From assembly GCA_037141675.1 (NCBI GenBank), contig JBAXCC010000003.1:1-48760 (forward strand): a stretch of 48,760 nucleotides of DNA. The letters are read 5' to 3'. The position numbers and the translations under genes were made by a program. Each line of letters begins with the position of its first letter. Position 1 is the first letter of the stretch. Below, piece after piece: positions 9,196 to 37,985 of the stretch. The notes beneath the pieces are model-generated. The model was not told where the DNA came from and ran no database searches. It saw nothing but the letters and a program-made list of their open reading frames with translations. This DNA comes from a bacterium. GTDB taxonomy: Bacteria; Verrucomicrobiota; Kiritimatiellia; RFP12; UBA1067.

Positions 9196-9217
9196 GTTTG
9201 ATCAAACCTGGATTCAG

Positions 9218-9261
9218 AAAAATGAGGGTTGGGCGACGGGAATCACTCACGTCGCCCAACC
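9218..9261 (-). terminator. Strong hairpin (terminator or processing site) between the giant gene and the M6 gene
   Basis: Perfect 12-bp stem GGTTGGGCGACG (9227-9238) / CGTCGCCCAACC (9250-9261). On the minus strand it is followed by CTCATTTTT. Confidence 0.65.
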
Positions 9262-9263
9262 GT

Positions 9264-18200: not shown

Positions 18201-19925
18201 TTGAGCAGGCTCTGAGAGGATAACTCGATAGGTGGCATTCGTATCCCCTTCGTTATAGGTCAAGTCGGCACGATCCACAACCACCGAGACGTTGGGAGGT
18301 CTGACCGGCGGATTAATGGTTATCGTATGTTCCGGCAGTGTGTATGAACCGCCATCAGCATCCGTAATCGTCAGATTAACCTTGTACTGCCTTGCCGTGG
18401 ACCCGATATTTTTATACGTCTTTTTGGTCTGGCCAGATGCCGTATAGTTCGTCTCCGTAATACGCGCTAGACCATCACCAAAATCCCATGAAAAGATGAT
18501 TCCCTTGGCCAAGTCGGCCGTCACGTCATTCAGATTAAGCCAGTTAAAGGTCAGTTCCGTGTACTCGAACCCAGTAGCTGGAGGAGTCCACTGGACGGTC
18601 GGGGCAACATTGGCAACGTTCAGAATGCCGTCAAAAGATACCTTGTATTTGGCCGTGTTCGTTGCGGCCGGAGTGATAATGACAAATGGATCGGCGGAAC
18701 TCAATGCAGTGCCATCCTTGACGCTAAACTGATACCAACCTGACTCTTCTGCATTTGCGGGAACGGAATATCCACCTGGTTGCGGTCTAATAATGATATT
18801 CGTTGCTGTGCTGGGCTGTATGTCAAACTGAACATAGACGGGGCTGGTGTCTGACTCAGAGAGGACAATTTTGAACTCACCTGAATACAGACCATTCGTT
18901 TCAGATAACGTCTGTGTCGGCAATCCATTCCGGAACAGCAGACTGATCGTCGGATCGGTAGGAGGGTCAATACGGATTACGTTGCTGATAAAGTTCGTAA
19001 CGCCTGTTGCGTTTTTATCATAATCCGAACGGCGCTGCACATAAACCGTTGCATTTGTGGCGATCGCATTGGTGGACAGGCCCCTTATCTGAAAGTCGGC
19101 AAAGCTCGAACCCAATGGTATGGTCATCTCTAGTGCGTTGCCCGGAATAGCACCTACTGGGCCAGAGCCTACTATTTGGAGGACATTCGTTTGAGGTGTC
19201 CAGATCACGACGTTTACATCCGTCAAATTTGTTCCGCCGGTCTGAACACGCCACGTGGTTGCCGGCTGACGTGAGACCAGACTCTGGGGGTTTGAATTAG
19301 CATAATTCAGTGTTTTAATACGAATCTGCTGCCACCAAAGATCTGCATCCCCCTGGACAATATTTTTAGAACTATCCGAATCAATACTTGGATAATCATA
19401 ATAACTGTTTTCAAGTTGCCACGTGACATTATTACTGAAGCTACCGTCCGCATAGGCCTTAAAAAACCAGCATTGGGCTGTGTCAATCACATACAACGGT
19501 TGTAGTGGGGGCAGCGGTTTATAGATTAACAGAGGATCTGCCATATCCCCAGGGCGGACAACATACTCAAAGGTGAAATCTGTACGGCTGAGGGAAGTGA
19601 ACATCCCGTTCACAAATGTCGATCCTACGAGCGTCGCATACGCATCAGAGGAGGTGTCTGAACCGACTTGCATTTTGATCTTCGGCTGCTGATAGATCAC
19701 ATTGAACAGATTCGACACGCCAATCGTTCCATAGAAGCGAACTGTGAATTGCACCTTTGTACCCGGGGTCGTTTTGGTTTGATTCGCAAATGACGACGAA
19801 TAGAACCCGATAATATCCCCTGTAGACGTTTGGGCAAACGCGCCTGTCGCACACATCATGCCACAGGCAACGAGAGGCAGCACCATTTTCTTAATCATAG
19901 TTGTGAACCGTGTTGTTGTATTCAT
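9264..19925 (-). CDS. Giant (~3,553 aa) secreted surface or adhesin-like protein: three Calx-beta-like + PKD-like pairs, many Ca-binding DxDxDG repeats, LamG domain
   Basis: Uninterrupted 10.7-kb ORF. ATG 19925 has a GGAGA RBS, and the signal peptide ends AFA|Q. PKD-like motifs NVAP...WDFGDG...TDADGG; repeated DTDGDGxPDGWE...G.NP motifs; LamG motifs FTVELWVRP, WVHLAA and GWMDEVRVW. Confidence 0.85.
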   Translation of the reverse strand: MNTTTRFTTMIKKMVLPLVACGMMCATGAFAQTSTGDIIGFYSSSFANQTKTTPGTKVQFTVRFYGTIGVSNLFNVIYQQPKIKMQVGSDTSSDAYATLVGSTFVNGMFTSLSRTDFTFEYVVRPGDMADPLLIYKPLPPLQPLYVIDTAQCWFFKAYADGSFSNNVTWQLENSYYDYPSIDSDSSKNIVQGDADLWWQQIRIKTLNYANSNPQSLVSRQPATTWRVQTGGTNLTDVNVVIWTPQTNVLQIVGSGPVGAIPGNALEMTIPLGSSFADFQIRGLSTNAIATNATVYVQRRSDYDKNATGVTNFISNVIRIDPPTDPTISLLFRNGLPTQTLSETNGLYSGEFKIVLSESDTSPVYVQFDIQPSTATNIIIRPQPGGYSVPANAEESGWYQFSVKDGTALSSADPFVIITPAATNTAKYKVSFDGILNVANVAPTVQWTPPATGFEYTELTFNWLNLNDVTADLAKGIIFSWDFGDGLARITETNYTASGQTKKTYKNIGSTARQYKVNLTITDADGGSYTLPEHTITINPPVRPPNVSVVVDRADLTYNEGDTNATYRVILSEPAQQDTYVQLRCQYPDGTPADACLSLATTNILIRQYFTNSTSFEMTLLDGTAATVSGIDIMPTITNAAAQAQYTKAYPGIIIIKNVAPRVDTTPQSQPMTATPISAFNAIEINKPFTFRYNASDVGADMYGAQPISVLFTFPDGTTTNSIGANGTVTKIFTSAYLGIQQVSMTARDKDGGTRTVTFLINVVPALPVPSVTVTGPGVLIPETSTGLYTLTVTLSQTPASAGITDPMIVYLDRTPIDSGLNGAVDIPATQSVTFYSSQTNKTVNFTVMDGTRLSTTSGFTVTPRIDPSNVVAVNTYKDKQPGLVLIQNTAPVIQDPRDQSTNTVATVGQSRAFTWQVLDVDADLPGMTLFWDWGDGTTTTTTGASGTTNHTFNTASPQVTVKVKATDKDGGTSSIIFYVTVKDSKTVIALPIGPNTAGFNGYTFLGTGTIVAPAAATIPDPYSGAPNYFYTFYFGADAMTAQLRAIPDPTPLLYAEGRKSYFFAWDGPLAAFQNTAHVTKPLAPALTIINLPTGTAGTGGGGGTGNTTLNGTMVQVSAIFTLEYDPGDVENPTGVNNGDLNQDGIPDRLVQRYFINPATAAATATALDPVWLLNLRAYNTDEDYLPVYPTGDAQGVMDFRPVPNPNTAANAVAVNAFTAFMEIRGYDGLLGTSDDPLTDPTMLDTDGDGYPDGWEYWFWYQSKINHRTGSRYNPFNIAQGDFIDWPDIQDAFDQNRSRNAYTNARWRDDFDNDGLLDIEELVLGTDPTNWDTDGDLMADGWEILRGLNPCDERDGLLPAQNNPDGDFFAISTVSRQHIQVVVTNTVLVGQVVTTISTNHYLATIDVTGVLSNTLTTAYRYGDDATGPWAVGRSVPVAVLTPANRISSTNELITALIMHFQVRDEKGFDPRTAWVGSVGRFGGYGAGGGAPAGWGYVNSERFGVWVPGNAPNTRPFTSVDEYLLMKFMYENQLNGMVATNNLGWIARVNAAIAANASTRLLVQEAWSRFTTHPCTPDTDASPALSDGVPDGWELYVALPPVPHGVPRPAFGNFINSPWDPNDYAEDIDVNLKPTGDAVTYQCEFWATDSVTPYQNAALYYGGITNSNPMKGVITIQRPAGHADTFWVNKFWPTNPWSPDTDGDSVSDGAERAFIYGNAVDNGGVCIAGGGLNPNSIDTDRDALPDAWENQFAGTPATATGVTTLPPVLPGQPAIAVAMTISNGQDGTVADQYKDVDLDGLASYQEYMTQSIRGYRYDITAVGTTNGMGQVGLPMDITCEIAGLFTEVTNTWDQCHFGWPGPADVLWYMKPAGPNGYCSTDPSNPDSDFDGMDDYYEMYHGLNPLLGNGLRADFLDDRVAYAWLSPGPTIWYDSNYWVTPLAFQMNFVSYPWVNGMPHADPDADGLLNLEEMLAINMPLPENRNTDPSPLWMTDPSNINSITARFYAPYGYTGYKPGGGAIPLYRDMYFWPSTILPYFTFPFEMNEGYDTDKDGISDKDEQVTNRNAKSDPRDSEDPIRRQAIWFSGANSAATTPYMYTDIYSVAGQSFADMEQAFRSFTVELWVRPEWATNRNDQILIERAFNYGQSDAGQVAGLRLRRNFLIGIAADGRVFGGFDNAGGHDEHTDSVRLFGEKIVANTWVHLAARMDGRTQKFTLFVNGVSQGEMSTTLIPATGLDPDRYYPTQSQVYNFVYRLGTLILGAANITPTSLGIDIGSAMTWDASWAPGYYEKFYRGWMDEVRVWDGARSNQEINDNFRKSLTREDIIANRTMILQELNSGASRNALSMNNFLSPILMNYYTFNNLFSAHTNQYVAQVPRGFNSVPVNANRPGGTAAGATVGWWDQCLVKNTVYNNYNYLPWIENVPAHMPRVTALVSTNANATATFLNDNVVSDSIYWTRRAAGTNATQNSFPNSNNPYGFTYNRTNILDTVDLLPIGDAWAKQCVDFWDDQGASGNWLENSGTTDDGLPSWWTTLHGTTGGWNDLYNGTNAYYKLNGMTNGEAYQRDLAKGMLPNAANASDYNDLYVQKADSSGAGLPDWWKRLYGLTIMDKTGDNGPLGDPDKDGLSNYAEYQITELYAFRYSSPLKFKTNPAQPVSDYFLKPTGGKLIYGAMFSDHDFIEDWWEELYSPTAANAYVFDSKTDYDADGWSNWAEARYSQAIAAVRPDQRELVMVNGIREYEFPIPIVDTRLNYKGVQASGNVVIQAFSTPAMDGIVDATWNIAFGQNNVQPNTQPLGFYAAKTIRTHLSPGSVVPNTLRIRLTDSWTGGTSLTGFDMDGVIYSMMVNNVWDPIGTINYITGEMVFDMSYFETVNIILNQATYPAARNSYVDASLSYFEMTYSSKLPTGWPQHIYLGRGATGALKEGKHYFFAFMDVDGNGAWDAGEPAGIPTPFETDIGWDNNPLSIQLTDYTPYNLRLSLTTGLRSEDVIFGTAGNAQGGGGQQAAGGSYQRVRIIRATVQTSSFTAGPVFDKTIFGRDYIHEGDLMTMPVYAGYGLDWGFKGILSPNAVGAIEYKVYVGDLEPYSANTLVATFTNKFDGARAIPTSVLPASGAYVYTARPSFTWSVTSVNGGYNAFAFEMRRGSATGPLVYPITIRQAPLKDTQTGNYVWEAPFYMGDKNVVNNGVYYWRVQLLNSRYSTVNTAAEWSSWKSFRWDVNKPMPAAGTATSENGSSSGYGQLRAMVKYFGAATGLTDRVVLQAFKNRGFTGMPAAQYLYTANQFTSITNMSLSATNAIPMRGLTPDTYYVRAFIDSNTNGVLDVWESWGYGNYYGENKSLYDARPLEVSFSALSPLATVYIEDADTDQDWFPDVYEFEQNPASTNFMELTGPNDGWYTRGDTEINPSLTTTNDASGFMRVMLSMASGSSAQQAAIFNLAVDGSSSTTSDAVTIQKLVFVPSGATLNWDLTPAQTTTSTFLALFQMASGAQSSAAPKSYTYNVKYSESLATPRSEWRTVQSTTSSENGSMRSTVTDADVTGMTGFFYIEVVPNY

Positions 19926-19972
19926 TCTGTTTCTCCAATTTAGATTGCTCAAATAAAACAAAAATCCGTGTA

Positions 19973-23208: not shown

Positions 23209-24090
23209 ATGCCAGCAGCAATTCTCGACGGCAAGCAACTTGCCGCAACCATGAGAACAGATATCGCAAAGCAAGTAGCGGAACTCAAGGCCAAGAAGGG
23301 CATCACGCCCGGCCTTGGAGTGATCCTCATCGGAGTCGACCCCGCATCCACCTCCTACGTAACAGCCAAGGAAAAGGCCTGCGAGGAGGCCGGCATGCAC
23401 TCAGAGGATGTGCGCGTGCCCGCGACAACCACACAGGAGGAGGCCCTAGCCCTCGTCCAGAAGATGAATGCCGACCCGCGCATTCACGGCATTCTCGTGC
23501 AACTTCCGCTTCCGAAACATATCGATGAAGCCGCCGTCATTAACGCCATCGCACCGGAGAAGGATGTGGATGGCTTCACACCGATCAATGTAGGCCGCAT
23601 GATGATTGGCGAGACCTGCTTCCTGCCCTGCACGCCGCACGGTATCATCCAAATGCTGATCAGCGCAGGCATCGAGACCTCCGGCAAACATGCGGTCGTC
23701 ATCGGACGCAGCAACATCGTGGGCAAGCCCGTTGCGCATCTCTTAATGCGCAAGGCGAAAGGCGGTAACGCCACTGTGACTGTCTGCCATACCGGCACTA
23801 AAGACTTGTCCGCCTTCACCCGGCAAGCGGATATTCTGGTGGTTGCCGCAGGCCGTCCGAACACGGTCACGGGCGATATGATCAAGCCTGGCGCCGTCGT
23901 CATCGATGTCGGCGTAAACCGCATTCCAGATGCCACCAAGAAAAACGGCTTCCGTCTTGTCGGCGATGTCGACTTCGATTCCGCCGCACAGGTGGCCTCG
24001 CTGATTACACCTGTTCCGGGCGGCGTCGGTCCCATGACCATTACCATGCTGCTTTATAACACCCTCGAATCCGCCTCGCGCATGAAATAA
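23209..24090 (+). CDS. folD: Methylenetetrahydrofolate dehydrogenase/cyclohydrolase FolD
   Basis: [30 protein letters not shown] and [11 protein letters not shown]. Confidence 0.98.
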
Positions 24091-24094
24091 TAGT

Positions 24095-24493
24095 ATGAAA
24101 ACAATCAATACCCCCACCGCCCCCGCAGCCATCGGCCCTTATGCACAGGCCATTGAAGTCAACGGCCTAGTCTTTTGCTCAGGACAACTCCCGATTAACC
24201 CGGCGACCGGCACGATCGAAGTTGCCGGACCTGCGGAACAAACCATGCAAGTGCTCCTCAACCTCCGCGCTGTCCTTGATGCAGCGGGCTCAAGCTTGAG
24301 TAAAGTCGTGAAGACAACGGTCTTCCTCACCGACATGGGTGAGTTTCCCTTCATGAACAAAGTGTATGAGGAAATGTTTGCAGGTCACAAACCTGCGCGC
24401 GCAACCGTTGAAGTGTCTCGCCTCCCCAAGAACGCCCGCGTTGAAATCGAGGCCATCGCTGTTGCCGCCGAGCCGCATTATTGCAGCATATAG
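24095..24493 (+). CDS. ridA: RidA family reactive-intermediate deaminase
   Basis: APAAIGPYAQA, FCSGQ, VVKTTVFL, PARATV and VEIEAIA. Confidence 0.93.
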   Translation: MKTINTPTAPAAIGPYAQAIEVNGLVFCSGQLPINPATGTIEVAGPAEQTMQVLLNLRAVLDAAGSSLSKVVKTTVFLTDMGEFPFMNKVYEEMFAGHKPARATVEVSRLPKNARVEIEAIAVAAEPHYCSI

Positions 24494-24499
24494 CACTAA

Positions 24500-25072
24500 A
24501 TGAAACGCTTATTTGACATTGCACTCACGCTTCTCACTGCAGCGCTGTGGTTGCCATTATTGGCGCTGGTGGCCTTCGTAGTGTTTATCGTTATGGGGGC
24601 CCCCGTTCTCTTTGTGCAAGATCGTCCTGGCTTGAAAGGAAATATCTTTCGGCTATTCAAATTTCGCACCATGCGTTTGGGCGATGCCCCGGATGCCGAA
24701 CGTCTGACGCGCACCGGACGTTTCCTGCGCGCCACAAGCCTCGATGAACTGCCGGAACTTATAAATGTGCTGAAGGGTGACATGTCGCTTGTAGGTCCAC
24801 GCCCCCTGCTTGTACGCTATTTGTCGCGCTACACGACTGAGCAGATGCGCCGCCACGACGTACGTCCCGGTCTGACAGGATGGGCGCAAATCAATGGGCG
24901 CAACGCGATTACATGGGAGCAGAAATTCGCTTATGATGTCTGGTACGTTGACCATCGGACGTTGTGGCTTGATCTAAAAATTATGGGGCTCACCGTTTGG
25001 TGTGTCTTGACGCATCAAGGCATCAGTGCAGAGGGCGAAGCCACAATGGGTGAATTCAGGGGAGTGAAATGA
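24500..25072 (+). CDS. Undecaprenyl-phosphate phosphoglycosyl transferase (PglC/EpsL-like)
   Basis: MKRLFD, KFRTM, LRATSLDELP, GDMSLVGPRP, RPGLTGWAQING and DVWYVD: a small monotopic PGT. Confidence 0.93.
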   Translation: MKRLFDIALTLLTAALWLPLLALVAFVVFIVMGAPVLFVQDRPGLKGNIFRLFKFRTMRLGDAPDAERLTRTGRFLRATSLDELPELINVLKGDMSLVGPRPLLVRYLSRYTTEQMRRHDVRPGLTGWAQINGRNAITWEQKFAYDVWYVDHRTLWLDLKIMGLTVWCVLTHQGISAEGEATMGEFRGVK

Positions 25073-25689
25073 AAAAAATCATCATCATCGGCGCAAGCGG
25101 TTTCGGCAAGGAAATCGCATGGGTTATTGACCGCATGAATCATGCGGGTTGTGAATTGGGCCTGATCGGTTTTTGTGATGATGCCCCTAATAAGCAAAGG
25201 GGATCCTTTGCGGGGTTTCCTCTTCTTGGGAGATTGGAGGATGCCGCCGCGCAACTGCCTGGCTCGCGCTTCATCTGCGCCATCGGCAATAATCGCGCAC
25301 GTCAATCCGTTGTCGCGCGCGCTGAAGCTGCTGGGTTTCTCCCTCACTCCATTATTGATCCCTCTGCTACAATCGCGCCTGACACGACGATTGGCAAAGG
25401 TTCGTTCATCGGCATCAGTAGCATTGTCTCGACAGGCGCTGTCATTGGCTGTCATGTCATCGTGAATCACCAAGCCTGCGTTGGTCATGATGTGACCATT
25501 GCTGATTTCGCCCAAGTCTGTCCTGGCGCCCGCATCTCCGGTGGCTGTGACATCGGAGAAGGCGCACTCCTCGGAACAAATGCAGCAACGATTCCGCTCA
25601 TCAAAATGGGGGCGTGGTCCACGCTCGGCGCCGGTACGACCGCCTTGACCAGCATCCCCGACTATACAACCCTTGCCCGCTTGAAATAG
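25069..25689 (+). CDS. Sugar N-acetyltransferase (PglD/NeuD/EpsM-like)
   Basis: IIGASGFG Rossmann-like N-domain, AIGNN.R and hexapeptide repeats including VGHD. ATGA overlap with the upstream gene. Confidence 0.92.
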   Translation: MKKIIIIGASGFGKEIAWVIDRMNHAGCELGLIGFCDDAPNKQRGSFAGFPLLGRLEDAAAQLPGSRFICAIGNNRARQSVVARAEAAGFLPHSIIDPSATIAPDTTIGKGSFIGISSIVSTGAVIGCHVIVNHQACVGHDVTIADFAQVCPGARISGGCDIGEGALLGTNAATIPLIKMGAWSTLGAGTTALTSIPDYTTLARLK

Positions 25690-25700
25690 CTGCTATTGTT

Positions 25701-27257
25701 ATGCAGATATTCACTGATAACGCTTCAAAACCAAACAAGCTTTTTTATGGACTCCTCTTTGCTTGTTTCTTCCTCCTCTATGCGGTAACGGCTCAACGGG
25801 GTGTAAGCTGGCAGGACAGCGGTGAATTTCAGTATCGCGTACTCGTGCATGACTATTCCTGGATATCAGGCATCGCCATCGCCCATCCTGCCTATATTGT
25901 CGGTGCAGAACTTTTTTCCTGTCTTTTCCCCGCCTCTTGTCGCTTTTATGCGATCAATCTCTTTAGTGGCCTTGGCATGGCGTTCGCTTTGATGTTTCTC
26001 GCACGCCTCCTCACGCTGTTGCGGTTGAAAACTTCTACCGTCATCCTCACTGTGCTGACGCTCGGTTTGTCGCACATGGCGTGGTGGCTCTCCACTATCT
26101 CGGAGGTCTATACCTGGTCCCTCGCCTTTCTCATGGCGGAGCTTTTCTGCATGGCGAAGCTCTGCGGAGAGGGATCCGAAGAAAAGATGAAAGAGGAAGG
26201 AGAAAGGAGACAGGGTCACGGGGCGACAAGGATCTGGCTCCTTCTGGCGTTACTCAACGGCCTTCATGCCTCTTTTCACAATTTTGCCTTTCTCAACCTG
26301 CCAGTCTATGCCATTCTGTTTATTTGCCTCCAGTGGCGCAGAAACCTACTTCAGAGCATCGCCCTCCTGCTACTCACGGCCTGCGCGTGGCTCGTGGGTG
26401 CTTGCCTGCTCGTCGCCCTCTTCTACCTCGAATGGTCTGCGACGCAGTCCTTCACTGCAACACTTAAGAGTCTTCTGTTCAGCCACGAGTTTGAAGATGT
26501 TGTCACAGGGACGCGGGCAATCAACTGGTCCCTCGCAAAGATGAATCTCGCCTTGGCCAGCATCAGCTTCTTGAGTCCGGCATGGCTCTTTGTCTATTTT
26601 GCAGGACGCACCCGTAGCACTTATCCGTATTTCAAGCTTGCGCTTCTCAGCTTGACGATACTCCATTTTTTCTTCTGGATCCGCTATTTTGTACCTGATC
26701 AAGCGACGTTTCTCCTGCCGACTCTGGGGCTGCTCGCCATCTGGGTTGGGATTGGACTGGACAGTCTTACACTCAGACGGAAGCAGGTGGTGCTCCTTGG
26801 CACCGCCATACTCCTGTTCGCCATTGTAACCCCGTTGTTACTCCACCACATCCTGCTCGTCAAACAAGGCGGTGTCAAACGCATGCGTGAGCTGCCCTTC
26901 CGCGAAGAGAGTAGCTATTGGATATTCCCCTGGAAACACAACGAGCGATCTGCCGCTCGCTTTGTCGAGCATGTCTGTGCTATTCTAAAAGCTGGAGATG
27001 TTTTAATTGCGGATAATACGGCTGCAGGTCCTGTCATGGTAGCGCAAGCGGCTGGACTTTTAACATCCAATATTCGCATCATTACTTTTTTTACAGGCGA
27101 GACCGACGAGGAAATCATCCAACTGATCAGGACAAAAGAGCGCGTTTACATTGTGTCACCTATTGCCGGGTATGCATCAAGTGCCTTGCTAACAGGCCAG
27201 TTTACATTTGAAAAAGAGGATGCTCTTTATCGCGTCAGGAGTGCACGTCATGACTAA
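25701..27257 (+). CDS. DUF2723/TMEM260-like GT-C membrane glycosyltransferase
   Basis: WQDSGEF after TM1, AHPAY, STISEVY and about 11-13 hydrophobic helices. Start at ATG 25701, since the ORF-track start overlaps the previous gene. Confidence 0.75.
   Translation: MQIFTDNASKPNKLFYGLLFACFFLLYAVTAQRGVSWQDSGEFQYRVLVHDYSWISGIAIAHPAYIVGAELFSCLFPASCRFYAINLFSGLGMAFALMFLARLLTLLRLKTSTVILTVLTLGLSHMAWWLSTISEVYTWSLAFLMAELFCMAKLCGEGSEEKMKEEGERRQGHGATRIWLLLALLNGLHASFHNFAFLNLPVYAILFICLQWRRNLLQSIALLLLTACAWLVGACLLVALFYLEWSATQSFTATLKSLLFSHEFEDVVTGTRAINWSLAKMNLALASISFLSPAWLFVYFAGRTRSTYPYFKLALLSLTILHFFFWIRYFVPDQATFLLPTLGLLAIWVGIGLDSLTLRRKQVVLLGTAILLFAIVTPLLLHHILLVKQGGVKRMRELPFREESSYWIFPWKHNERSAARFVEHVCAILKAGDVLIADNTAAGPVMVAQAAGLLTSNIRIITFFTGETDEEIIQLIRTKERVYIVSPIAGYASSALLTGQFTFEKEDALYRVRSARHD
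26181..26232 (+). repeat. Purine-rich 7/8-nt tandem repeats inside the GT-C gene
   Basis: GAAAAGA TGAAAGA GGAAGGA GAAAGGA, then GACAGGGT CACGGGGC GACAAGGA. It encodes the charged loop EKMKEEGERRQGHGATR. Confidence 0.55.
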
Positions 27258-28413
27258 ACGTATTTTTTTATCGCCCCCATGGATGGGCGGGGACGAACGC
27301 AAGCTCGTTGAAGCAGCGTTCGATTCGAACTATGTTGCACCTTGCGGTCCTATGGTCGACCAGTTTGAAAAAGATTTCACTGCATTCACCCATCAGCCGA
27401 GCGCCTGCGCACTCTCCAGTTGCACAGCAGCACTTGATCTGCTTTGCCGCGAACTGGACGTCCAAAAGGGTGATACCCTCTTCTGTTCTGATCTAACATT
27501 TGTCGCGTCAATTGCGCCGGCCGTCCATCGAGGCGCGACACCCGTCTTTATTGACAGTGACGAACACACGTGGAATATGAATCCGGACCTTCTTGCAGAA
27601 GCACTGGCGGATGCTGAACGAGACAATCACTTACCCAAAGCGGTTATAGCGGTTGACCTCTACGGGCAATGCTGCGATTACAATCGCATCGAGTCGATCT
27701 GCGCCTCTTACGAAGTTCCGCTGATCATTGATTCCGCTGAGGCGCTTGGCGCGATGTATCAGCAACGCCAAGCTGGTGACGCCGGATGGGCTTCTGTCTA
27801 TTCATTCAACGGAAACAAAATCATCACCACGTCCGGTGGAGGCATGTTAACATCCCGCGATAGTGCCATTGTCGACCGTGCACGCAAACGTTCACAGCAA
27901 TCGCGTGAGAATCACATCTGGTACGAACATGGCGAACTCGGCTATAATTATCGTATGAGCAATATCGTTGCGGCGATCGGTGTCGGACAACTTCAAGTCT
28001 TGCCTGAAATCATTCGGCGCAAACATCAAATTTTCGGTTGGTATCGCGCAAACCTAAAAGACATTTCGGGCTTAGCTTTTATGCCCGAAGCGGCTTACGG
28101 CAAAGCCACACGCTGGTTAACGGTCATCACCCTCAACGCTGAACATGCGACACCTGACACGGCATCACCTTCACAGGAGGTTTTTAACGTGATGCAGGCA
28201 TTGGCAAACGAAAATATTGAGGCCCGCCCGATTTGGAAGCCCATGCATCTGCAACCCGTTTTTCGCTCTGCAAAAATTTACGGTGGCGCGGTCAGCAAGC
28301 GCTATTTCAACGCGGGACTATGTCTCCCATCTGGCGCTGGCTTGACTCAATCCGATGTCGACCGTATCTGTAGCATTGTGAAGCAGTCGCTTTTTAATAC
28401 ATCAAGCATTTGA
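27250..28413 (+). CDS. DegT/DnrJ/EryC1/StrS sugar aminotransferase (PglE/EpsN-like)
   Basis: RIFLSPP, VDLYG, DSAEALG, the PLP-lysine motif SFNGNKIITTSGGG, GYNYRMSN, RPIWKPMHLQP and GLCLPSG. ATG 27250 has an AGGAG RBS and overlaps the upstream stop. Confidence 0.94.
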   Translation: MTKRIFLSPPWMGGDERKLVEAAFDSNYVAPCGPMVDQFEKDFTAFTHQPSACALSSCTAALDLLCRELDVQKGDTLFCSDLTFVASIAPAVHRGATPVFIDSDEHTWNMNPDLLAEALADAERDNHLPKAVIAVDLYGQCCDYNRIESICASYEVPLIIDSAEALGAMYQQRQAGDAGWASVYSFNGNKIITTSGGGMLTSRDSAIVDRARKRSQQSRENHIWYEHGELGYNYRMSNIVAAIGVGQLQVLPEIIRRKHQIFGWYRANLKDISGLAFMPEAAYGKATRWLTVITLNAEHATPDTASPSQEVFNVMQALANENIEARPIWKPMHLQPVFRSAKIYGGAVSKRYFNAGLCLPSGAGLTQSDVDRICSIVKQSLFNTSSI

Positions 28414-28425
28414 CAAGGAATACCG

Positions 28426-30111
28426 ATGAGCACGCAGAAACAAATACTTGATTGGATGCGATTTGCAATGCTCGCCATTATAGCTCTCTTTGCCTATTTT
28501 AATTATTCATGGATGATAGGTTACACCATGATGATGTTTAACGAACCCCTGGAGGATATGTCGCATGGATGGGTCATCCCGTTTGTCAGCCTCTTTGCAA
28601 TCTGGAAGCTGCGGGCTGATTTTTCAAAAGCCATGGCCACCGGGAGACCTTCCTGGCAAGGGTTTTTTTGGTCCGTTCTGTTTCTTGTCATCGCTTGGTT
28701 TGGCGCACGGGGTCAACAATCTCGCATTGAGCAACTGTCTCTTATTGGGCTTATTTGGTCTATACCATATGCCCTTTGGGGTCGGAATATAGCGCAACTC
28801 TTGTTGTTCCCGGCTGGGTTCCTCCTCTTTACAATCCCTATTTCTTCCTTTCTTGATTTCTTCACTATGCACCTGCGCATATTTTCTTCTGGCATGGCCA
28901 CTGGCATTCTTAATGGATTCGGCATGGTCATTGAGCGTTCGGGAACAGCACTTTTCTCTCGCGTACCCGGAGGTGAGTTCAATGTGGATGTTGCTGACCC
29001 GTGTAGCGGTATTCGTTCGCTCTTCGCCATGATGGCACTTACAGCCGCCTACGCTCATTTCACGTTAAAGACGCGCCTTCAAAAATGGTTTCTTTTTGCA
29101 TGTTCGTTGCCCATCGCGATGGTTGGCAACATGTTCCGAATCTTTTCCATTTGCATTGTTGCACGTTTTTTCGGACAGGAAATCGCGACTGGCTTCTATC
29201 ACGACTATTCAGGCTTCGTCATTTTTATCATCGGTGTATTATTGATGTTCGAAACTGGCCGATGGGTCGTTAAAGTTGACACATGGGCCCAAAATGCTTT
29301 TCCACGTCTCCGCTCATTCTTTTCCCTTGCTCCTGAAGAGCATGCATCTGAGAAGCAACCGAACCGAATATACTTCATTCAGGCAGGGCTTATCTTTTCG
29401 CTGGCACTCTTTGTTTTTATCAGCAACCGAATGGTTGGGGCCCCTCTCTATGATCCAACACGTTATATTGTTGCGGATCTTCCCAAACAGATCAATTCCC
29501 TCATCGGCGATCAGCCCTGGTTCTGCCACAACGAACAATGCAATAATCATTCTGAAGAACGAATTCTTATAGAACAAAAATGCCAACAAGGCGACGGATT
29601 TACGTGCCCAACCTGTGGTGGTAAAATGAAAAAAGTCTCGATGGGCGAATTGCAAGACCTTCCAACAGATACAGAAATTCTTAAACGTATCTATCGTTCT
29701 TCGGATGGCCTCACTTATTCTGTAAGCGTTGTCATTGCTGGACAAAGCCGTGGGAGCATTCATCGGGCGGAACTTTGCCTGCCGGCACAAGGATTCGTAA
29801 TGCTCAGTGCGAAAAAAGAAAAGCTGAACATCAAGACCGGTCACCCCCGGGAAGCGCGGATCATCCAGGCTCAACGCTCGTCTTCCGATGATCGTTTTTC
29901 GCTCGTCTACTGGTTCGTGAGCAGGAATCATGAGTGCGCTTCGCATGCTGAGCGCATTTTACTCGATATCTGGGACCGGTCCATCCATAATCGTATCAAT
30001 CGTTGGGCCATGATTGCCGTAAATGTATCAACCCCGCTGGATACTCCTGAATCGAGAATATCGTTCGAAGCCTTTGTAGATGATCTTTACCCGAAAATAC
30101 TTCTCAAATAA
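28426..30111 (+). CDS. Exosortase (EpsH family) fused to an EpsI-like periplasmic domain
   Basis: SHGWVIP and the catalytic triad motifs VADPCSGIRS (Cys193), NMFRI and FYHD, across about 8 TM helices. C-terminal IHRAELCLPAQG and VYWF are EpsI-like motifs. Confidence 0.9.
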   Translation: MSTQKQILDWMRFAMLAIIALFAYFNYSWMIGYTMMMFNEPLEDMSHGWVIPFVSLFAIWKLRADFSKAMATGRPSWQGFFWSVLFLVIAWFGARGQQSRIEQLSLIGLIWSIPYALWGRNIAQLLLFPAGFLLFTIPISSFLDFFTMHLRIFSSGMATGILNGFGMVIERSGTALFSRVPGGEFNVDVADPCSGIRSLFAMMALTAAYAHFTLKTRLQKWFLFACSLPIAMVGNMFRIFSICIVARFFGQEIATGFYHDYSGFVIFIIGVLLMFETGRWVVKVDTWAQNAFPRLRSFFSLAPEEHASEKQPNRIYFIQAGLIFSLALFVFISNRMVGAPLYDPTRYIVADLPKQINSLIGDQPWFCHNEQCNNHSEERILIEQKCQQGDGFTCPTCGGKMKKVSMGELQDLPTDTEILKRIYRSSDGLTYSVSVVIAGQSRGSIHRAELCLPAQGFVMLSAKKEKLNIKTGHPREARIIQAQRSSSDDRFSLVYWFVSRNHECASHAERILLDIWDRSIHNRINRWAMIAVNVSTPLDTPESRISFEAFVDDLYPKILLK

Positions 30112-30122
30112 ATAGGCGAAAT

Positions 30123-31184
30123 ATGGAAACAAAAATTTTAGAGTGGCTACGCGCATTGACGTTGTTAGTGCTAATCCTTCTCGGATGCCTCCATTTCAAG
30201 AGTGTCTTGTTAAGCGCCATGGCGATTGACTTCACGAAGATATCGGCCACACAACTGATATCATTCGAATGGATCGTTCCCTTTATTTGTTTCTATGCTC
30301 TCTTTACCCGAAGAGAGGAAATTTCGCGGGCCGCCTCTCTTCCATCTTGGACCGGGTTTGCGATGACGTGCTTTTTTCTTGTTGCGCTCTCCGCGTCTGC
30401 ACATACAAACAAGCCACCGCTCCAGCTTCTCTCCATTGCAGGATTGATCATGGCTGTTACCCATGCATTCTGGGGAAAAGAAGCGGCAAAATTATTATGG
30501 TTTCCCATGGGATTTTTAGTCTTCGCCGTCCCTGTTTTCTTTTACCTCGATTGTCTCAAAATACTTTCTGAATCCCTTTCCGATATGATCATCCGCTTCG
30601 GAACATCCGTTGAACAAACCGGCTTTAAATACTTCCGAGATCTGCTGGGCGTTAAGGGGTTCACCTTAAAGCCGGCAGACCCCGCCAGTGGCATACGTTC
30701 TCTCTTTGCCATGTTAGCGATTGCAGTAACTCTTGCACATTTTACAGTTAAGACTCGCCAGCAACGTTTCGCGATTTTCTGTTACGCAGTCCCTATTACT
30801 ATCGTTGCTAATATGATCCGCTCGTTCATCATCTGCCTCATCGCTCTCAAACTCGACCGGGAATGGGCGGTAACGTTTTATACTCATTATTCTCAATATG
30901 TCACGTTCCTCATAGCTTTGATCTTTTTTTTCCAATTGGCGAACTTCATTGTCTACCTCAGCGAAAGATATAAGAAGCCAACATCAAAAGAGTGGTTACA
31001 AAGCATTCATGAACAAGAAACACTGGTCGATGTCCCAAAACAAAGTATTGTTAAATCAGCCGCCATTATCTGTTTTATTTTTATATTCGCAATGACCGCT
31101 TTCTTCTTTACGAACACCCATAAACTAAGCGCTAAGTGCGACAAAAAGGCAAGCCCTGCAGCATCATCCACTGGTGGCAAATAA
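30123..31184 (+). CDS. Exosortase paralog lacking the catalytic cysteine (probable pseudo-enzyme)
   Basis: Collinear with the upstream exosortase (PSW.GF, LS..GLI, WG...A.LL.FP.GFL, SGIRSLFAM.A...AHFT.KTR.Q). It reads PADPASGIRS (GCC at 30684-30686) and FYTHYS. The ORF is intact and has no EpsI domain. Confidence 0.85.
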   Translation: METKILEWLRALTLLVLILLGCLHFKSVLLSAMAIDFTKISATQLISFEWIVPFICFYALFTRREEISRAASLPSWTGFAMTCFFLVALSASAHTNKPPLQLLSIAGLIMAVTHAFWGKEAAKLLWFPMGFLVFAVPVFFYLDCLKILSESLSDMIIRFGTSVEQTGFKYFRDLLGVKGFTLKPADPASGIRSLFAMLAIAVTLAHFTVKTRQQRFAIFCYAVPITIVANMIRSFIICLIALKLDREWAVTFYTHYSQYVTFLIALIFFFQLANFIVYLSERYKKPTSKEWLQSIHEQETLVDVPKQSIVKSAAIICFIFIFAMTAFFFTNTHKLSAKCDKKASPAASSTGGK

Positions 31185-31200
31185 GAGAAATCCCCTTCTC

Positions 31201-31881
31201 TTATTGGACGAATGACGTTTGGCCTGTTGCGTCCAAGGAGGGCGCACAGGGATAGAAGAGCCAGTCCTGCTCCACGGTGCAAATCACTGCCGAGCTGTGT
31301 AAAAATCCAACCCAGTTTTCTGCTGTGTACGTGCGGGCTTTTATACCTGCAAGTAACGCCGCAACAAAAATATCGTGCGACACGAGCACGTTGAGTTGCT
31401 GGGTTGTCATGCGTTGCATCCAGGCGACCATCTGGGGTGTCGCAACAGCAACATCATGCGAGTATAGCGCAGACCCTGTCCGCAAGTAATCGAGCATGTA
31501 TTGAATATAGCCGCACCGCATCATCTCGCCGGGCAGCTTCTCCGCTTCATCATAATAAAAATTCTTCAGCCCTAAAATCGGCTCATCCGCCACCTCTGCG
31601 TCCGGGCATCCCATGCCCTCTGCAAGACAGGACGCGGTCATCTGACACCGTACCATCGGACTCGACAGGAAACGGACATCATACGGCCCTGCCAGCAATC
31701 GGCCTGCCTCTCGGGCCATCTCTTCGCCTCGCGGTGTCAACGCCAGGGAGTGCCCAAAGGTCGTATCACCTGGCGTAATCTTAGGACGCTCCGAGTGCCG
31801 TATCAGCAACGATACTTTGCATCCCTCTGCCAAAAATTGTTTTACCCTCTTAAAATCAATCGTCTCTGTAAAAACCTTCAT
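31201..31881 (-). CDS. Histidine phosphatase superfamily protein
   Basis: LIRHSER, LTPRGEEMA, SSPMVRCQMTA and VSHD. ATG 31881 has an AAGGA RBS and lies just after the tilS stop. Confidence 0.88.
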   Translation of the reverse strand: MKVFTETIDFKRVKQFLAEGCKVSLLIRHSERPKITPGDTTFGHSLALTPRGEEMAREAGRLLAGPYDVRFLSSPMVRCQMTASCLAEGMGCPDAEVADEPILGLKNFYYDEAEKLPGEMMRCGYIQYMLDYLRTGSALYSHDVAVATPQMVAWMQRMTTQQLNVLVSHDIFVAALLAGIKARTYTAENWVGFLHSSAVICTVEQDWLFYPCAPSLDATGQTSFVQ

Positions 31882-31883
31882 TC

Positions 31884-33293
31884 TTATTTCCTTACGACTT
31901 CGATCCTCAAACTCGCTGACTGCTTGCCATTTACAGCAAAACGGTTCGCAATACGGTATCCCGGAATCCAGACCACCTCGTCGCCGCACACCAAGAGTGG
32001 CACAGCATCACGAATGTGCTCAGGTACTTTCGCATCCACAAAAACATCCTGCACCTTTTTCGTCCCCTTCATTCCGTAAGGCTGGATGCGATCCCCAGGC
32101 TGGCGACTCCTCGCCATGAGAGGCTTCCCAGCCAGCGCATCCGGATCGATCGTGCACACTGCAGGATAGCCCCCTGCCCCATGCGCGACACTCTCAATCC
32201 CTTTTGCAACCTTGCAGATGATGGTCACATCCCCCCATTGCGTCTGCCCCCGAGGATTCACCTTTTGGGCCAGCCTCTGAATGGGCGTTGTGTGGATGAT
32301 CTGTAACGCACCAGCCCGAAGAATCGCATACACGTCTTCACCAAGCTGCTCCTTGTCGCCCTCTTCCAAGGCGAGTAGCCGCTCAACCGTCTCAAAGCCG
32401 CTTGGCAGAGGAGCCTCCGCATGCCAGAGCCACAGCCGCATTACACGCCGCTGCAATGCCACGGGAGAGGCCTTGAGTTGTTTCATATCCAATACGTCAG
32501 TGCGCTTTTCGCGCGAGATAATATCCTGCGCCATCTCCTCTAAGAGCGAATCTTCCTCTTGTAAAATCTCTGCGGTCCTACACAAGTTCATCCGCAGCGC
32601 GTTACCGAAATTGTGCTCTAAAAAGGGCAAGATCTCAACCCGCATCTTGTTACGTGGAATCGTCACGTCCCTGTTGGTCGTGTCTTCACGCCAGGTGATT
32701 TTCTTCTGTTTGAGCCAGCCACGGACGGCCTCGCCCGAGACATGTAACAAGGGACGCATAAAACCGCGCGACCGATCTTTCAAAGGTGCCAAACCCGAGG
32801 CCCCCGCCCCGCGCATCAAACGCAGCAAGACAGTCTCCGCCACATCATCCGCCTGATGTCCTGTGGCAATCGCATCGAGTTTGAGCCGCGCGCGGCACTC
32901 TGCGAAGAATGCTTGCCGCATCTCCCGCGCAGCCATCTCAACAGAGATTGCCTCGGTTTGATGTGCCGTGACTTCACGGCGTTCCGCCACACATGACGCA
33001 CCTGTTTTTTTCGCAAGCGCTTTAACCCATTTCGCATCCTGTGCAGACGTGCTGCGCAGCCCGTGATCCAGATGGAGGACGACGAGTTTAATTTTATTCT
33101 TTTTACAGATCGGCGCCAGCAGGGTTAACAATGCGACCGAATCCGCGCCGCCTGACACCGCCACACCCAGACGCTTCACACCCTGCAACAGTCCCTTGCG
33201 TTCGATCACCGCTTGCACAGTGTCCGCAAGGCCGTCTGCATCATCACAATAGAGGGGTGCTTGATTTCGCATTTTCTGCAACTTGACGTTCAC
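31884..33293 (-). CDS. tilS: tRNA(Ile)-lysidine synthetase TilS
   Basis: AVSGGADS PP-loop, HLDHGLR, E.AARE.R, TGHQADDVAET, RPLL and C-terminal RQPGDR..KKVQDVFVDAKVP. The GTG start is uncertain. Confidence 0.96.
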   Translation of the reverse strand: MNVKLQKMRNQAPLYCDDADGLADTVQAVIERKGLLQGVKRLGVAVSGGADSVALLTLLAPICKKNKIKLVVLHLDHGLRSTSAQDAKWVKALAKKTGASCVAERREVTAHQTEAISVEMAAREMRQAFFAECRARLKLDAIATGHQADDVAETVLLRLMRGAGASGLAPLKDRSRGFMRPLLHVSGEAVRGWLKQKKITWREDTTNRDVTIPRNKMRVEILPFLEHNFGNALRMNLCRTAEILQEEDSLLEEMAQDIISREKRTDVLDMKQLKASPVALQRRVMRLWLWHAEAPLPSGFETVERLLALEEGDKEQLGEDVYAILRAGALQIIHTTPIQRLAQKVNPRGQTQWGDVTIICKVAKGIESVAHGAGGYPAVCTIDPDALAGKPLMARSRQPGDRIQPYGMKGTKKVQDVFVDAKVPEHIRDAVPLLVCGDEVVWIPGYRIANRFAVNGKQSASLRIEVVRK

Positions 33294-34691: not shown

Positions 34692-37600
34692 TTAAAATCC
34701 AAAGTTGCCTCCCACGCGTGTGCGCCCCGGTTGCACCAAGTCACGGAAGGGCGCTGGTAAATTCTGCTGTTGCCACATGGGCTGGAAGCGGCCTTCTGTG
34801 CGCAATTGATTGCGCGTGGGTTCACCGCCTAATTCAACGGCACGACGCCAGGCATCATACCCTTCGGTGCTCTTGCCTTGTAGGATGTTCAGCCACCCCA
34901 TTTCAACCCAGCCCCTCGGGTCACGGGGTACAAGCGTCACATAACGACGGAAGGCGTTCATCGCCAAGTCCATCCGGCGCACGCTGTTCAGCAGTGTACC
35001 CACCTGGAAGAAGCACTCTGCGGGGGCCTTCTCGTTATTGAGCACCATGCCGCTCAACTGGGACAACTCGTTTTGAAGATTTAACCGAGCATAAATCGTC
35101 AGCAACTCCATGATGTCGTTGACGTCTGCGCCTGTACCTAATTTCGCTTGAAGTTCCGTACGCCGCTTATCACAGGTCTCAATGTCATTAATCTGATCGA
35201 GAAAACCCTTGGCGCTTGTATTGTATTCGTCAATCTTCAGATAGGCGGCAATCAGTTGACGCGCATCCGCATACCGGCGTTGATTCATGCAGAGTTCCGC
35301 CAAGCGGAAATTACCCTCGGGGCTTTCCGGGCACAGCTCAACAGACTGACGGAACGCATATTCAGCCTCCGCAATCATCCCTCGGTACAGATAGAGTCCT
35401 GCAATCGCCGAACGCATCTTGGAGAAGGATTTTTTTGCGTCGGCATTGCGACGGAATTCTTCACGCGCTGTAAACTCCTTGGTCAGCTTATCCCAGTACG
35501 CCTTGTCCTTGGCGACAATATCCTGCCACAGCTTGGGATTCTGCTGCGGCGCCGGCAGCACATCCTTCTCAATTTTCATAATGACGCCTGCAGGACTCAG
35601 ATAGGGATACATCCATTGGATAACGTAGCTCTCTTCAACGTAGAATGCATGGTTGGTCTTGTTCCAATCAAAGATATACTTAGCTAGAATACCATTGATT
35701 TCCATGACCGCCAAGGCACCCGTCACTTGCACGCGGCCATTTTCAATGACAATGTCTCCGCGATTCGGCCTCGCCCCGCTCTGCACTTCTGACACAAACT
35801 GCTGGAACGCCCGCGCACTGTCATCTGGCGTCGGGATGCGAATCGGCGCTTTTGGAAAATCATTTTTACGATCCAATGCATTCCAGCCCCACTTGAAGAC
35901 ACTCCGCTGCCACGGGCTGAACTTTTCGAGCGTCTTGGGATCTTCCGGATTGGGACGGCTATAGTCGTAATGATCGCGGATATAGTTCATGTAGGTGCCA
36001 TCCGCCAAGGCATTCTGCGTAATGATGTAGACATCCGAACGATCAAAATCACGCCCCTTTGATTCCGGCAGGTGCGGACTCTGAAAGCGGTGCTGCGGTT
36101 TCACACGGCTTTCACAGAAGATCATGTAGGTCGGCACAAAACGCCCCGGATCTGTCCCTCCGTATAAGACCGCATCCTTCTCCATATCCGGATATCCGCC
36201 ACCCGGGCAAAACATGCGATAACCGAACTGATAGCCGAAATCATGCGTCGTGAGCGAACAGAGGCTCCAGTTCTTCGCATACGGAATATAAGGCAAGGCA
36301 AGCAGCGCTAGACAGGCCACATAGACCAGCGCCTTGGGGATCGTTCGCCAAACCGAGAGCACATACGCGAAGGTCATCGCAATACCATACCCAATCAGCA
36401 TGGCATAAAAGCCATGAGCCGGCGCAAAGAACTTAATCGTGATTTCCTGTTCCTGACGATCGAGCTTAGGATTGATAATCATGATCAGCCCGAGACTGGA
36501 CGCAAGGAAGGCCGCCCATACGAAAATTCCCCAGGAGCGTCCCGGCCATTCCAAGTAGAGCCAAAAGATAATCAACAAACAGAAGAGCGTTGAGAGTCCG
36601 ACACCCCAAATCATGAGCTGGGGCGAGAAGGCGAACGGCAGTTTCAACACCGCCGTACGTAAGACGGAAATCGCGATCATGGAAGCCGGTATCGCCGCCA
36701 GCCACACCAGCAAAATCCAGACGTAACTTTTGGCCTCACGCGTGAGCCGCTTGACCATCCACCAGGTCGAGACCCCCAGCGTCACCAGGCCGAAGAGACA
36801 GAGCGGCAGCGAATACTGCCTCAGCAAGCCCCGAATAAAGACCCATATCTGGATATGGATAATGGACCCACACGGATCCGCCATTTGAAGCTTCTCATAT
36901 TGGCCACGCGTAATCGCATGGAGGAAACCTTCTTTCGTTGAGGCAAAACCCCAGTTCATGGGCGGATTGGTCGATGCGGCGATCGGCATATACATATACA
37001 ACGCACAACCGCACAGAAAGAGTCCTGTATAAATGAACGCATAGCGCGGACTGACCCAGCCCGCCTTGAATCCGGCACCCAGTAAGATCGCGCCCGCCAC
37101 AGCTAACGCAATGATTCGAAATGCCATCGAGCTATCGGCACGCAACCAGGCAAAGAGCGAAAACACCGCGGCCAAACTGAACAGCACGGCAACTGTCAAA
37201 TCCCAGAAGGTCGTCAGAGATGTCATCATCAACTGAAAGGGCTGCACTTTGACTTTTGCTGCAAGCAGTTCAGCGCGCTGCTGGAAAAACTTATCCAAGC
37301 CCAATGCCAATGTGCCCGCCACCAGCGCCAAGGCCATCACCGCTACGGTCTGATGATTCGTCATACTCAGCCCGAACGTCAGCAAGGAGGCATAAAGAAA
37401 TCCCTTTCGCCGAGGCTGGACCATCCACGCAAAGAAAAAGCAGGCGATCAGAATAAACGAGAAGGCGTTCAACACGCGCATTTCCGACACGCTTGCCCAG
37501 AGCCAAACACCGCGATTGAAGCCGAACAACAAGGAGGTGCTCGTACCCACGGCCAAGGCAATCCAGTGCAGCAACCGGTCATCGACCTTCTTAGACCACG

Positions 37601-37985
37601 GAAGCGTATGCAGCAAGACGCGCGTACTGCGCGTCATCATCAGCGTCATCACGCCCACCGTCAGACCGCCGGTAACGACAGACATCATTCCGATGCGCCA
37701 GGCAGGATTTCCAAAGGGAATGATGAAATGACTCCAGATATAGCCCAGGAAGGCCCACAGCGGATATCCGGGCGGATGCGGGACACCGAAGGTAAACGCC
37801 CCCGTCACCAGTTCACCGGAGTCTTGCAACGTCACCTCAGGCGCCATGTTACGGATAAAAATAAATGTCGAGAAGAGAAAGGACAATACCGAGGCAATCC
37901 AGTCTTCCTTCTTGAAGAAGTGCCTCGCCGAATCTTTCTCTGAATCTTCCTGACTCTCCACCGCATTCTTAAGTTGTTCACTCAT
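34692..37985 (-). CDS. DUF2723/TMEM260-like GT-C glycosyltransferase with C-terminal TPR repeats
   Basis: QDSGEL......GVPHPPGYP, SEMRVL, GLSMTNH, NPPMNWG and many TM helices. The C-terminus has TPR-like repeats (AEAEYAFRQSVELCPES; AMNAFRRYVTLVPRD). Confidence 0.88.
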   Translation of the reverse strand: MSEQLKNAVESQEDSEKDSARHFFKKEDWIASVLSFLFSTFIFIRNMAPEVTLQDSGELVTGAFTFGVPHPPGYPLWAFLGYIWSHFIIPFGNPAWRIGMMSVVTGGLTVGVMTLMMTRSTRVLLHTLPWSKKVDDRLLHWIALAVGTSTSLLFGFNRGVWLWASVSEMRVLNAFSFILIACFFFAWMVQPRRKGFLYASLLTFGLSMTNHQTVAVMALALVAGTLALGLDKFFQQRAELLAAKVKVQPFQLMMTSLTTFWDLTVAVLFSLAAVFSLFAWLRADSSMAFRIIALAVAGAILLGAGFKAGWVSPRYAFIYTGLFLCGCALYMYMPIAASTNPPMNWGFASTKEGFLHAITRGQYEKLQMADPCGSIIHIQIWVFIRGLLRQYSLPLCLFGLVTLGVSTWWMVKRLTREAKSYVWILLVWLAAIPASMIAISVLRTAVLKLPFAFSPQLMIWGVGLSTLFCLLIIFWLYLEWPGRSWGIFVWAAFLASSLGLIMIINPKLDRQEQEITIKFFAPAHGFYAMLIGYGIAMTFAYVLSVWRTIPKALVYVACLALLALPYIPYAKNWSLCSLTTHDFGYQFGYRMFCPGGGYPDMEKDAVLYGGTDPGRFVPTYMIFCESRVKPQHRFQSPHLPESKGRDFDRSDVYIITQNALADGTYMNYIRDHYDYSRPNPEDPKTLEKFSPWQRSVFKWGWNALDRKNDFPKAPIRIPTPDDSARAFQQFVSEVQSGARPNRGDIVIENGRVQVTGALAVMEINGILAKYIFDWNKTNHAFYVEESYVIQWMYPYLSPAGVIMKIEKDVLPAPQQNPKLWQDIVAKDKAYWDKLTKEFTAREEFRRNADAKKSFSKMRSAIAGLYLYRGMIAEAEYAFRQSVELCPESPEGNFRLAELCMNQRRYADARQLIAAYLKIDEYNTSAKGFLDQINDIETCDKRRTELQAKLGTGADVNDIMELLTIYARLNLQNELSQLSGMVLNNEKAPAECFFQVGTLLNSVRRMDLAMNAFRRYVTLVPRDPRGWVEMGWLNILQGKSTEGYDAWRRAVELGGEPTRNQLRTEGRFQPMWQQQNLPAPFRDLVQPGRTRVGGNFGF

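Follow-up and report, generated by a model that had tools for sequence, protein, structure and literature searches.

The open reading frame at positions 30123..31184 (+ strand) of the 48,760-nucleotide stretch of DNA analyzed here (the window), in the following designated psi, very probably encodes a pseudoenzyme, i.e. an exosortase copy without the catalytic Cys and His that has retained the membrane fold and is kept under purifying selection. Exosortases are widespread membrane enzymes that trim and sort surface proteins. Psi lies directly behind a gene for a catalytic exosortase, designated X1, and we consider it moderately probable that the best explanation overall is a pseudoenzyme that would be made together with X1 and would act non-catalytically at the sorting step.

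X1 (28426..30111, + strand) encodes a catalytic exosortase-EpsI fusion protein of 561 aa, which consists of an 8-TM EpsH domain, a linker helix, and a C-terminal EpsI/DUF3485 domain. A spacer of 11 nt (30112..30122, + strand) separates its stop codon from the start codon of psi, with an AGG located 8-10 nt before the ATG. The 353 aa of psi comprise an exosortase domain, an amphipathic segment, and one more C-terminal helix, and they do not include an EpsI domain. Both adjoining ORFs are intact and are located on the same strand, and BLASTP aligned psi with X1 at 38% identity over 239 aa (E 9e-52). In Pfam searches, X1 matched PF09721 with 160 bits and PF11984 (DUF3485/EpsI) with 48.4 bits. The sole match of psi was PF09721, with 91.2 bits versus a cut-off of 25.7 and coverage of the profile positions 19-252 of 254; judged by the gathering threshold of PF09721 over the 8-TM domain, psi is a member of the exosortase/EpsH superfamily. 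The model TIGR02602 (8TM_EpsH, cut-off 105.55) was passed by X1 with 140.9 bits and failed by psi with 77.3 bits. Psi did pass the exosortase/archaeosortase signature TIGR04178 (42.3 bits, cut-off 23), which explains why its relative P0009 bears the database name "exosortase/archaeosortase family protein". Among the named subtypes XrtA, B, C, D, Q, S, T, V, W, and Z, psi remained below every curated cut-off, the best scores being 93.4 versus 425 for XrtW and 85.8 versus 208 for XrtA, and X1 likewise reached no cut-off of a named Xrt subtype. The protein atlas returned generic exosortase clusters only. X1 and psi are the only two PF09721 genes of the window's genome (G000), which is a metagenome-assembled genome of 568 contigs with a completeness of 92.7%.

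According to the original description of the exosortase family, its invariant residues are located in the motifs CxG, NxxR, and HxxxG (Haft et al. 2006, PMC1569441). For archaeosortase A, Cys173, Arg214, and Arg253 were reported to be critical (PMC9263693). X1 has kept Cys193-x-Gly, Asn235-x-x-Arg238 (NMFRI), and His259-x-x-x-Gly (FYHDYSG), and C193, N235, R238, and H259 were invariant in all 33 aligned catalytic exosortase-EpsI relatives. Codon 193 of X1 is TGT (29002-29004), within V-D-V-A-D-P-C-S-G-I-R. The respective column of psi contains Ala188, encoded by GCC (30684..30686, + strand) within P-A-D-P-A-S-G-I-R, so that TGT and GCC differ at all three codon positions. The NxxR motif is retained in psi as Asn230-Met-Ile-Arg233 (NMIRS; 30810..30821, + strand), with CGC as the codon for Arg233 (30819-30821). 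In the column of the catalytic His, psi has Thr254 (30882-30884), followed by His255 (30885-30887; both codons 30882..30887, + strand; FYTHYSQ). In the BLASTP alignment, Thr254 was paired with the His of X1 and the His of psi was shifted by one residue toward the C-terminus; Gln258 takes the place of the Gly in HxxxG. Hence, of the motifs of a competent exosortase, NxxR is present in psi, and CxG (Ala188-Ser-Gly) and HxxxG are absent. A preliminary description of the window had proposed a tandem paralog with a Cys to Ala replacement in an intact ORF and had listed NMFRI/FYHDYS for X1 and NMIRS/FYTHYS for psi, and the ORF translations and the BLASTP alignment agreed with it in every one of these points.

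The loss of the catalytic Cys is a property of the whole psi family. A word-indexed search with psi yielded 20 close proteins (P0001-P0020, 52-99% identical) and five distant exosortases, and a scan of 1.84 billion representatives yielded 1843 exosortase-family matches, among them three psi clusters (P0001, P0026, and the fragment P0020). None of the 22 aligned psi family members contains a Cys in the catalytic Cys column. This former Cys column (188) harbors seven different residue types (A/T/S/L/N/D/Y) and ranks 15th in variability among the 234 core columns; even at 99% identity to the window's psi, P0001 has Thr in place of Ala188. Seven residue types were also found in the former His column (254), which is the 10th most variable of the 234. 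Gly190, beside the former Cys column, is invariant in the family, Asn is present in the Asn230 column of 18/22 members, and the Arg233 column contains Arg in 16 members, Cys in four, and Ser and His in one each. In total, 49 columns are invariant across the 22 members, and the fold-defining Gly and Pro residues are common to psi and X1. D44, H47, and R100 of the exosortase N-terminal motifs have been lost in psi. As judged from these alignments, the Cys loss in the psi family is old and conserved. The preliminary description had also noted a shifted His. It is present in the window's psi, but it is not family-wide, as His255 was found in 17/22 members and is absent from a subfamily designated type B. 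A role of the shifted His as a compensating catalytic residue was ruled out, because type B lacks His255.

The strength of selection was quantified using DNA from the genomes of the genus and from two metagenome loci, with pairs at a dS of 0.5-1.5 and with a maximum likelihood (ML) tree that has long branches; the closest relatives P0001-P0008 (76-99% identity) are outside this dN/dS set. The ML codon model GY+F3X4 was fitted to 8 psi and 7 X1 sequences and gave omega values of 0.16 and 0.095, respectively. The pairwise Nei-Gojobori values at dS < 1.5 were 0.13-0.18 for psi and 0.08-0.13 for X1, including the psi pairs of G005 versus L041 (dS 0.77, omega 0.176) and of G003 versus G001 (dS 0.52, omega 0.178). 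Every complete psi copy is an intact ORF, down to an identity of 39%. In five congeners, the identities to the window were 67/68/45/43/40% for psi and 82/79/72/71/56% for X1, and conservation within the locus is lowest for psi. The codon-based estimates indicate that the constraint on psi is relaxed but real and that the gene is under purifying selection. The term pseudoenzyme generally denotes enzyme homologs that are devoid of catalytic residues and yet conserved under purifying selection, and it applies to psi. The preliminary description had suggested a retained non-catalytic paralog and had named conservation of the Cys loss in orthologs together with a dN/dS below 1 as the way to check it. 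Both were observed, with no Cys in 22/22 members and an omega of 0.16 by ML and of 0.13-0.18 in pairwise comparisons at unsaturated dS, and retention is also evident from the position of psi behind X1 in 8/8 loci. None of the outcomes that it had listed as refuting (a Cys retained in close relatives, a dN/dS near 1, or a Cys codon) was observed. The particular roles that it put forward, i.e. a substrate trap, an adaptor, a lipid-donor binder, or a regulator comparable to iRhoms, would be candidate functions.

Psi is part of a conserved gene order. In the window, Pfam identified four genes upstream of X1, all on the + strand, which encode a Bac_transf sugar-phosphate transferase (24500-25072), a PglD-like acetyltransferase (25069-25689), a TMEM260-like membrane protein (25614-27257), and a DegT-family aminotransferase (27208-28413). 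The loci of the genus share the order PglD-like, TMEM260-like, DegT, X1, psi, with convergent genes for a histidine-phosphatase-family protein and TilS after psi. Two scans for related loci with alignment A2 found three and two loci, of which L040 is identical to that of G005. In 8/8 syntenic loci psi is located directly behind X1, at a distance of 4-15 nt. Types A and B of psi occupy the same slot in different species; five type A loci have junctions of 10-15 nt with AGG or GGAGG, and three type B loci have only 4-5 nt from the stop codon to the ATG. From these junctions, it is predicted that the primary psi copy is co-expressed with X1 from one operon and that its translation is tightly coupled. 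A promoter and terminator scan of 24000-32200 yielded counts no higher than in shuffled sequences. The TMEM260-like gene inside the exosortase operon is a possible link to protein glycosylation. A second TMEM260-like/DUF2723-type polytopic protein, judged by eye from the sequence, is encoded at 34692-37985. In G002 (L034:7315-9486) and in L041 (120-2291), a gene for a 723-aa protein with a signal peptide is located between DegT and X1, which is absent from the window's locus.

Additional copies of psi were found away from X1. G002 contains a second psi, of type B, 45 kb from X1 (L035:4097-6909), which has a four-nucleotide overlap with the stop codon of a gene for a 599-aa double GT2 glycosyltransferase. 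In G003, a partial type A copy is located behind ExbB/ExbD at a contig end. In addition, the two genes do not always share the same history. In the locus L041, psi is close to that of G005 (dN 0.135), and X1 is close to that of G001 (its dN to G005 is 0.344). Because of this mismatch, X1 and psi have been exchanged independently. A comparison of L041:120-3990 with L033 and L037 also revealed that the flanks and psi resemble the G000/G005 lineage and X1 resembles that of G001 (60% to the window), which points to recombination with a breakpoint between the two genes. The lack of co-divergence of X1 and psi argues against a tightly co-evolving interface. Likewise, the extra psi copies away from X1 and the uncoupled phylogenies weaken the idea that psi is an obligate subunit.

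The distribution of psi is narrow. An exosortase is encoded by 59 of 61 relatives, and the short Cys-less form was found in the window's genus only. When a psi profile was run over 221 genomes from 27 genera of the family, psi-level scores (at least 256 bits) were confined to this genus (g1), with eight matches in 6/6 genomes; the best catalytic exosortase scored 250 bits. As far as these genomes reveal, psi is kept across one genus of lake bacteria. In a careful ML tree, 14 psi sequences formed one clade (support 100/100) within the exosortases of the family; its stem measured 1.53 changes per site. The psi clade was sister (96/93) to a group that contains long and short exosortases of the sister genus g20 and the representatives P0027, P0029, and P0037, and psi and the g20 group together adjoined the X1 clade of the window's genus (99/97). 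A tandem duplication inside the genus was not adopted, since psi stands next to the g20 group when the tree is left unconstrained; an AU test did not reject psi and the genus's X1 as one clade (p = 0.293). With a stem of this length, any donor or time assigned to the duplication would be tentative. The short g20 paralogs (G244, G024; 343-446 aa; also P0029 and P0037) belong to the same size class as psi and also have no EpsI domain. However, they differ from psi in that Cys, Asn-x-x-Arg, and His-x-x-x-Gly were retained in 4/4 paralogs checked, and they are presumably active. H47 and R100 have also been lost in these short Cys-bearing paralogs. It is a reasonable inference that the EpsI domain was lost at the beginning, that the loss of the catalytic residues followed, and that the gene then settled under selection.

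An AF2 model of psi, based on a 22-row alignment, was all-helical, with a pLDDT of 73.5 and a pTM of 0.64. The model and alignment A1 revealed the extra C-terminal hydrophobic helix (residues 309-331; 31047..31115, + strand), which lies beyond the exosortase domain and corresponds in the alignment to the linker helix of X1 in front of EpsI (residues about 318-340). A PDB sequence search with X1 gave 0 matches, and a PDB fold search with the psi model gave 0 matches at E <= 0.001. The predicted complex of X1 and psi received a score of 0.00, which counts neither for nor against an association. The EpsI part of X1 contains the four residues C367, C372, C394, and C397 (window 29524-29616, residues 367-397; FCxNEQC...CPxCG), which were invariant in 33/33 exosortase-EpsI proteins. 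The region resembles a zinc ribbon inserted into a domain that is presumably periplasmic.

The potential substrates of X1 were searched for as PEP-CTERM proteins. With the cut-off of TIGR02595, seven were found in G002, five in G001, and one in G005; the tails in these congeners have the form VPEPT(S/A)MALLA...RR(R/K), and the PEP-CTERM proteins of G002 and G005 are small (155-267 aa). No PEP-CTERM protein exceeded the TIGR02595 cut-off in the incomplete genomes G003 and G004, and none was found by the family model, by regexes, or by tblastn in the 92.7% complete G000. The absence from G000, despite an intact and selected exosortase-EpsI protein, could be due to assembly gaps or to a real loss. 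The window also encodes two very large secreted proteins of 1585 and 3565 aa (4438-19961, - strand), neither of which has a PEP-CTERM tail; the former contains He_PIG, MAM, and M6-peptidase-like domains.

Based on these results, the following course of events can be envisaged. An exosortase copy would have lost its EpsI domain first and its catalytic Cys and His later, with the membrane fold retained. Psi would be made together with the catalytic exosortase-EpsI protein X1 from the same operon, with tight coupling of translation. It would then associate with X1, or it would bind the PEP-CTERM membrane anchors of the substrates via the retained fold, and it could hold the anchors, pass them on to X1 for cleavage, or gate their access to it. 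That psi acts at the sorting step without catalysis, by binding X1 or PEP-CTERM anchors, seems plausible to us, if somewhat short of probable.

Several other explanations were considered. The main rival places psi outside protein sorting and states that it serves the surrounding glycan or exopolysaccharide pathway, for instance as a scaffold for a glycosyltransferase or through the binding of a polyprenyl-linked intermediate, independently of the protease chemistry of X1. It is in line with the position of the locus in a sugar-modification operon (Bac_transf, PglD-like, TMEM260-like, DegT), the overlap of the second psi of G002 with the double GT2 gene 45 kb from X1, the uncoupled histories of X1 and psi in L041, and the fact that a PEP-CTERM protein remained undetected in three of the six genomes of this genus, none of which is complete. 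However, exosortase genes generally reside in EPS loci, as the description of the family states (PMC1569441), so that the context does not discriminate between the two functions. Moreover, the primary psi is located 4-15 nt behind X1 in all eight syntenic loci, and the former active-site region (xSGIxSLFA, with the invariant Gly190) stays conserved. We regard a role in the glycan pathway as rather unlikely. An enzymatic function of psi with another nucleophile is much less likely still. Candidates would be Ser188 and Cys238, as Ser occurs in the former Cys column of 10/22 members and Cys238 is invariant in 22/22; the retention of Arg233 in 16/22 and the distant 260-aa group P0023-25, which has Ser alongside retained N, R, and H, would fit. 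Yet no nucleophile is conserved at position 188, as the window's psi has Ala and others have Thr, Leu, Asn, Asp, or Tyr, the His column shows the same freedom, and type B is devoid of a His in its vicinity. Cys238 is not a psi-specific gain either, as it is also present in the X1 of the genus (C243), five residues past the Arg along the helix.

Two further explanations were rejected. If psi were a decaying duplicate, i.e. a pseudogene in the making, its faster evolution in comparison to X1 and its rank as the least conserved gene of the locus would be readily understood; but an omega of 0.16, the lack of frameshifts and internal stop codons in complete copies down to 39% identity, the 49 invariant columns across 22 members, and the preserved position behind X1 with tight coupling make decay extremely improbable. 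For an assembly or sequencing artefact as the source of the Ala codon, no support was found, and the only circumstance that could be listed is that the window stems from a metagenome-assembled genome of 568 contigs. All three codon positions differ from TGT, every ortholog is devoid of the Cys, and contigs from public runs of three other studies match the window across the GCC codon. These were assembled contigs and not raw reads: X3 record 13 had 0 differences over 29973-30896, X4 record 21 had 0 over 30605-30714, and X6 record 30 had one difference, at a position not given, over 30651-31185. An artefact is thus practically out of the question, and the preliminary description had been right in excluding a single sequencing error on the basis of the codon difference.

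The reading of psi as a pseudoenzyme at the sorting step has implications beyond this locus. When the exosortase family was defined, it was not known what accepts the cleaved protein (PMC1569441). A dead paralog that is kept beside a live enzyme is a ready-made probe, as it should still bind the ligand of the fold (a lipid, the anchor helix, or the enzyme) but not turn it over; psi could thus help to trap substrates or partners. To our knowledge, neither an exosortase structure nor the acceptor of the cleaved protein has been settled since then. Furthermore, "exosortase family protein" labels that are derived from TIGR04178 or PF09721 include non-catalytic members, and therefore exosortase counts per genome can overpredict sorting systems. 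A more far-reaching and rather doubtful proposal is that psi represents the first dedicated non-catalytic subunit or anchor receptor among exosortases and archaeosortases, which would decide whether and when surface proteins are cut and would maybe link this cleavage to glycosylation by the enzymes that the operon encodes. If this were true, types A and B of psi and the recurrent Cys loss elsewhere would make pseudo-exosortases a general, overlooked control layer in bacterial surface-protein sorting.

Full-text literature searches, the coverage of which excluded subscription-only papers, revealed no description of inactive exosortase paralogs. Thus, the psi family itself is undescribed in the literature searched, but Cys-less exosortase homologs as such are not unique to psi. 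From the representative search, 148 further members of the exosortase family were aligned, and six of these had no catalytic Cys (P0077, P0106, P0148, P0164, P0128, and P0129, the last of which is a 247-aa piece with an uncertain alignment). With P0077, P0106, P0128, P0148, and P0164, and with P0023-25, which have Ser, psi shares the loss of the catalytic Cys. Unlike psi, these homologs belong to unrelated lineages and are 29-42% identical to X1; P0077 and P0106 have kept EpsI, and P0023-25 have kept N, R, and H. P0023-25 may represent a Ser-nucleophile variant. Because Cys-less homologs occur in unrelated lineages, the loss of Cys recurs in the exosortase family.

Compared with the exosortase/EpsH family (PF09721, TIGR02602, TIGR04178; as described in PMC1569441), psi is similar in its homology over the whole 8-TM domain, the Gly and Pro residues of the fold, the xSG and NxxR contexts, and its location in a polysaccharide or glycan locus beside an EpsI-bearing exosortase. 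It differs from the family in that it has neither the invariant Cys nor the His and Gly of HxxxG, falls below the cut-off of TIGR02602, and is devoid of EpsI. A comparison can also be made with an unrelated group of proteins. The iRhoms and Derlins are inactive rhomboids of eukaryotes for which client-binding and regulatory roles have been demonstrated. Psi is not a rhomboid, as its only Pfam match is PF09721, and the fold and family are unrelated. By analogy only, however, psi resembles iRhoms and Derlins in that a polytopic fold of the intramembrane protease type, which has no nucleophile, has been kept by selection.
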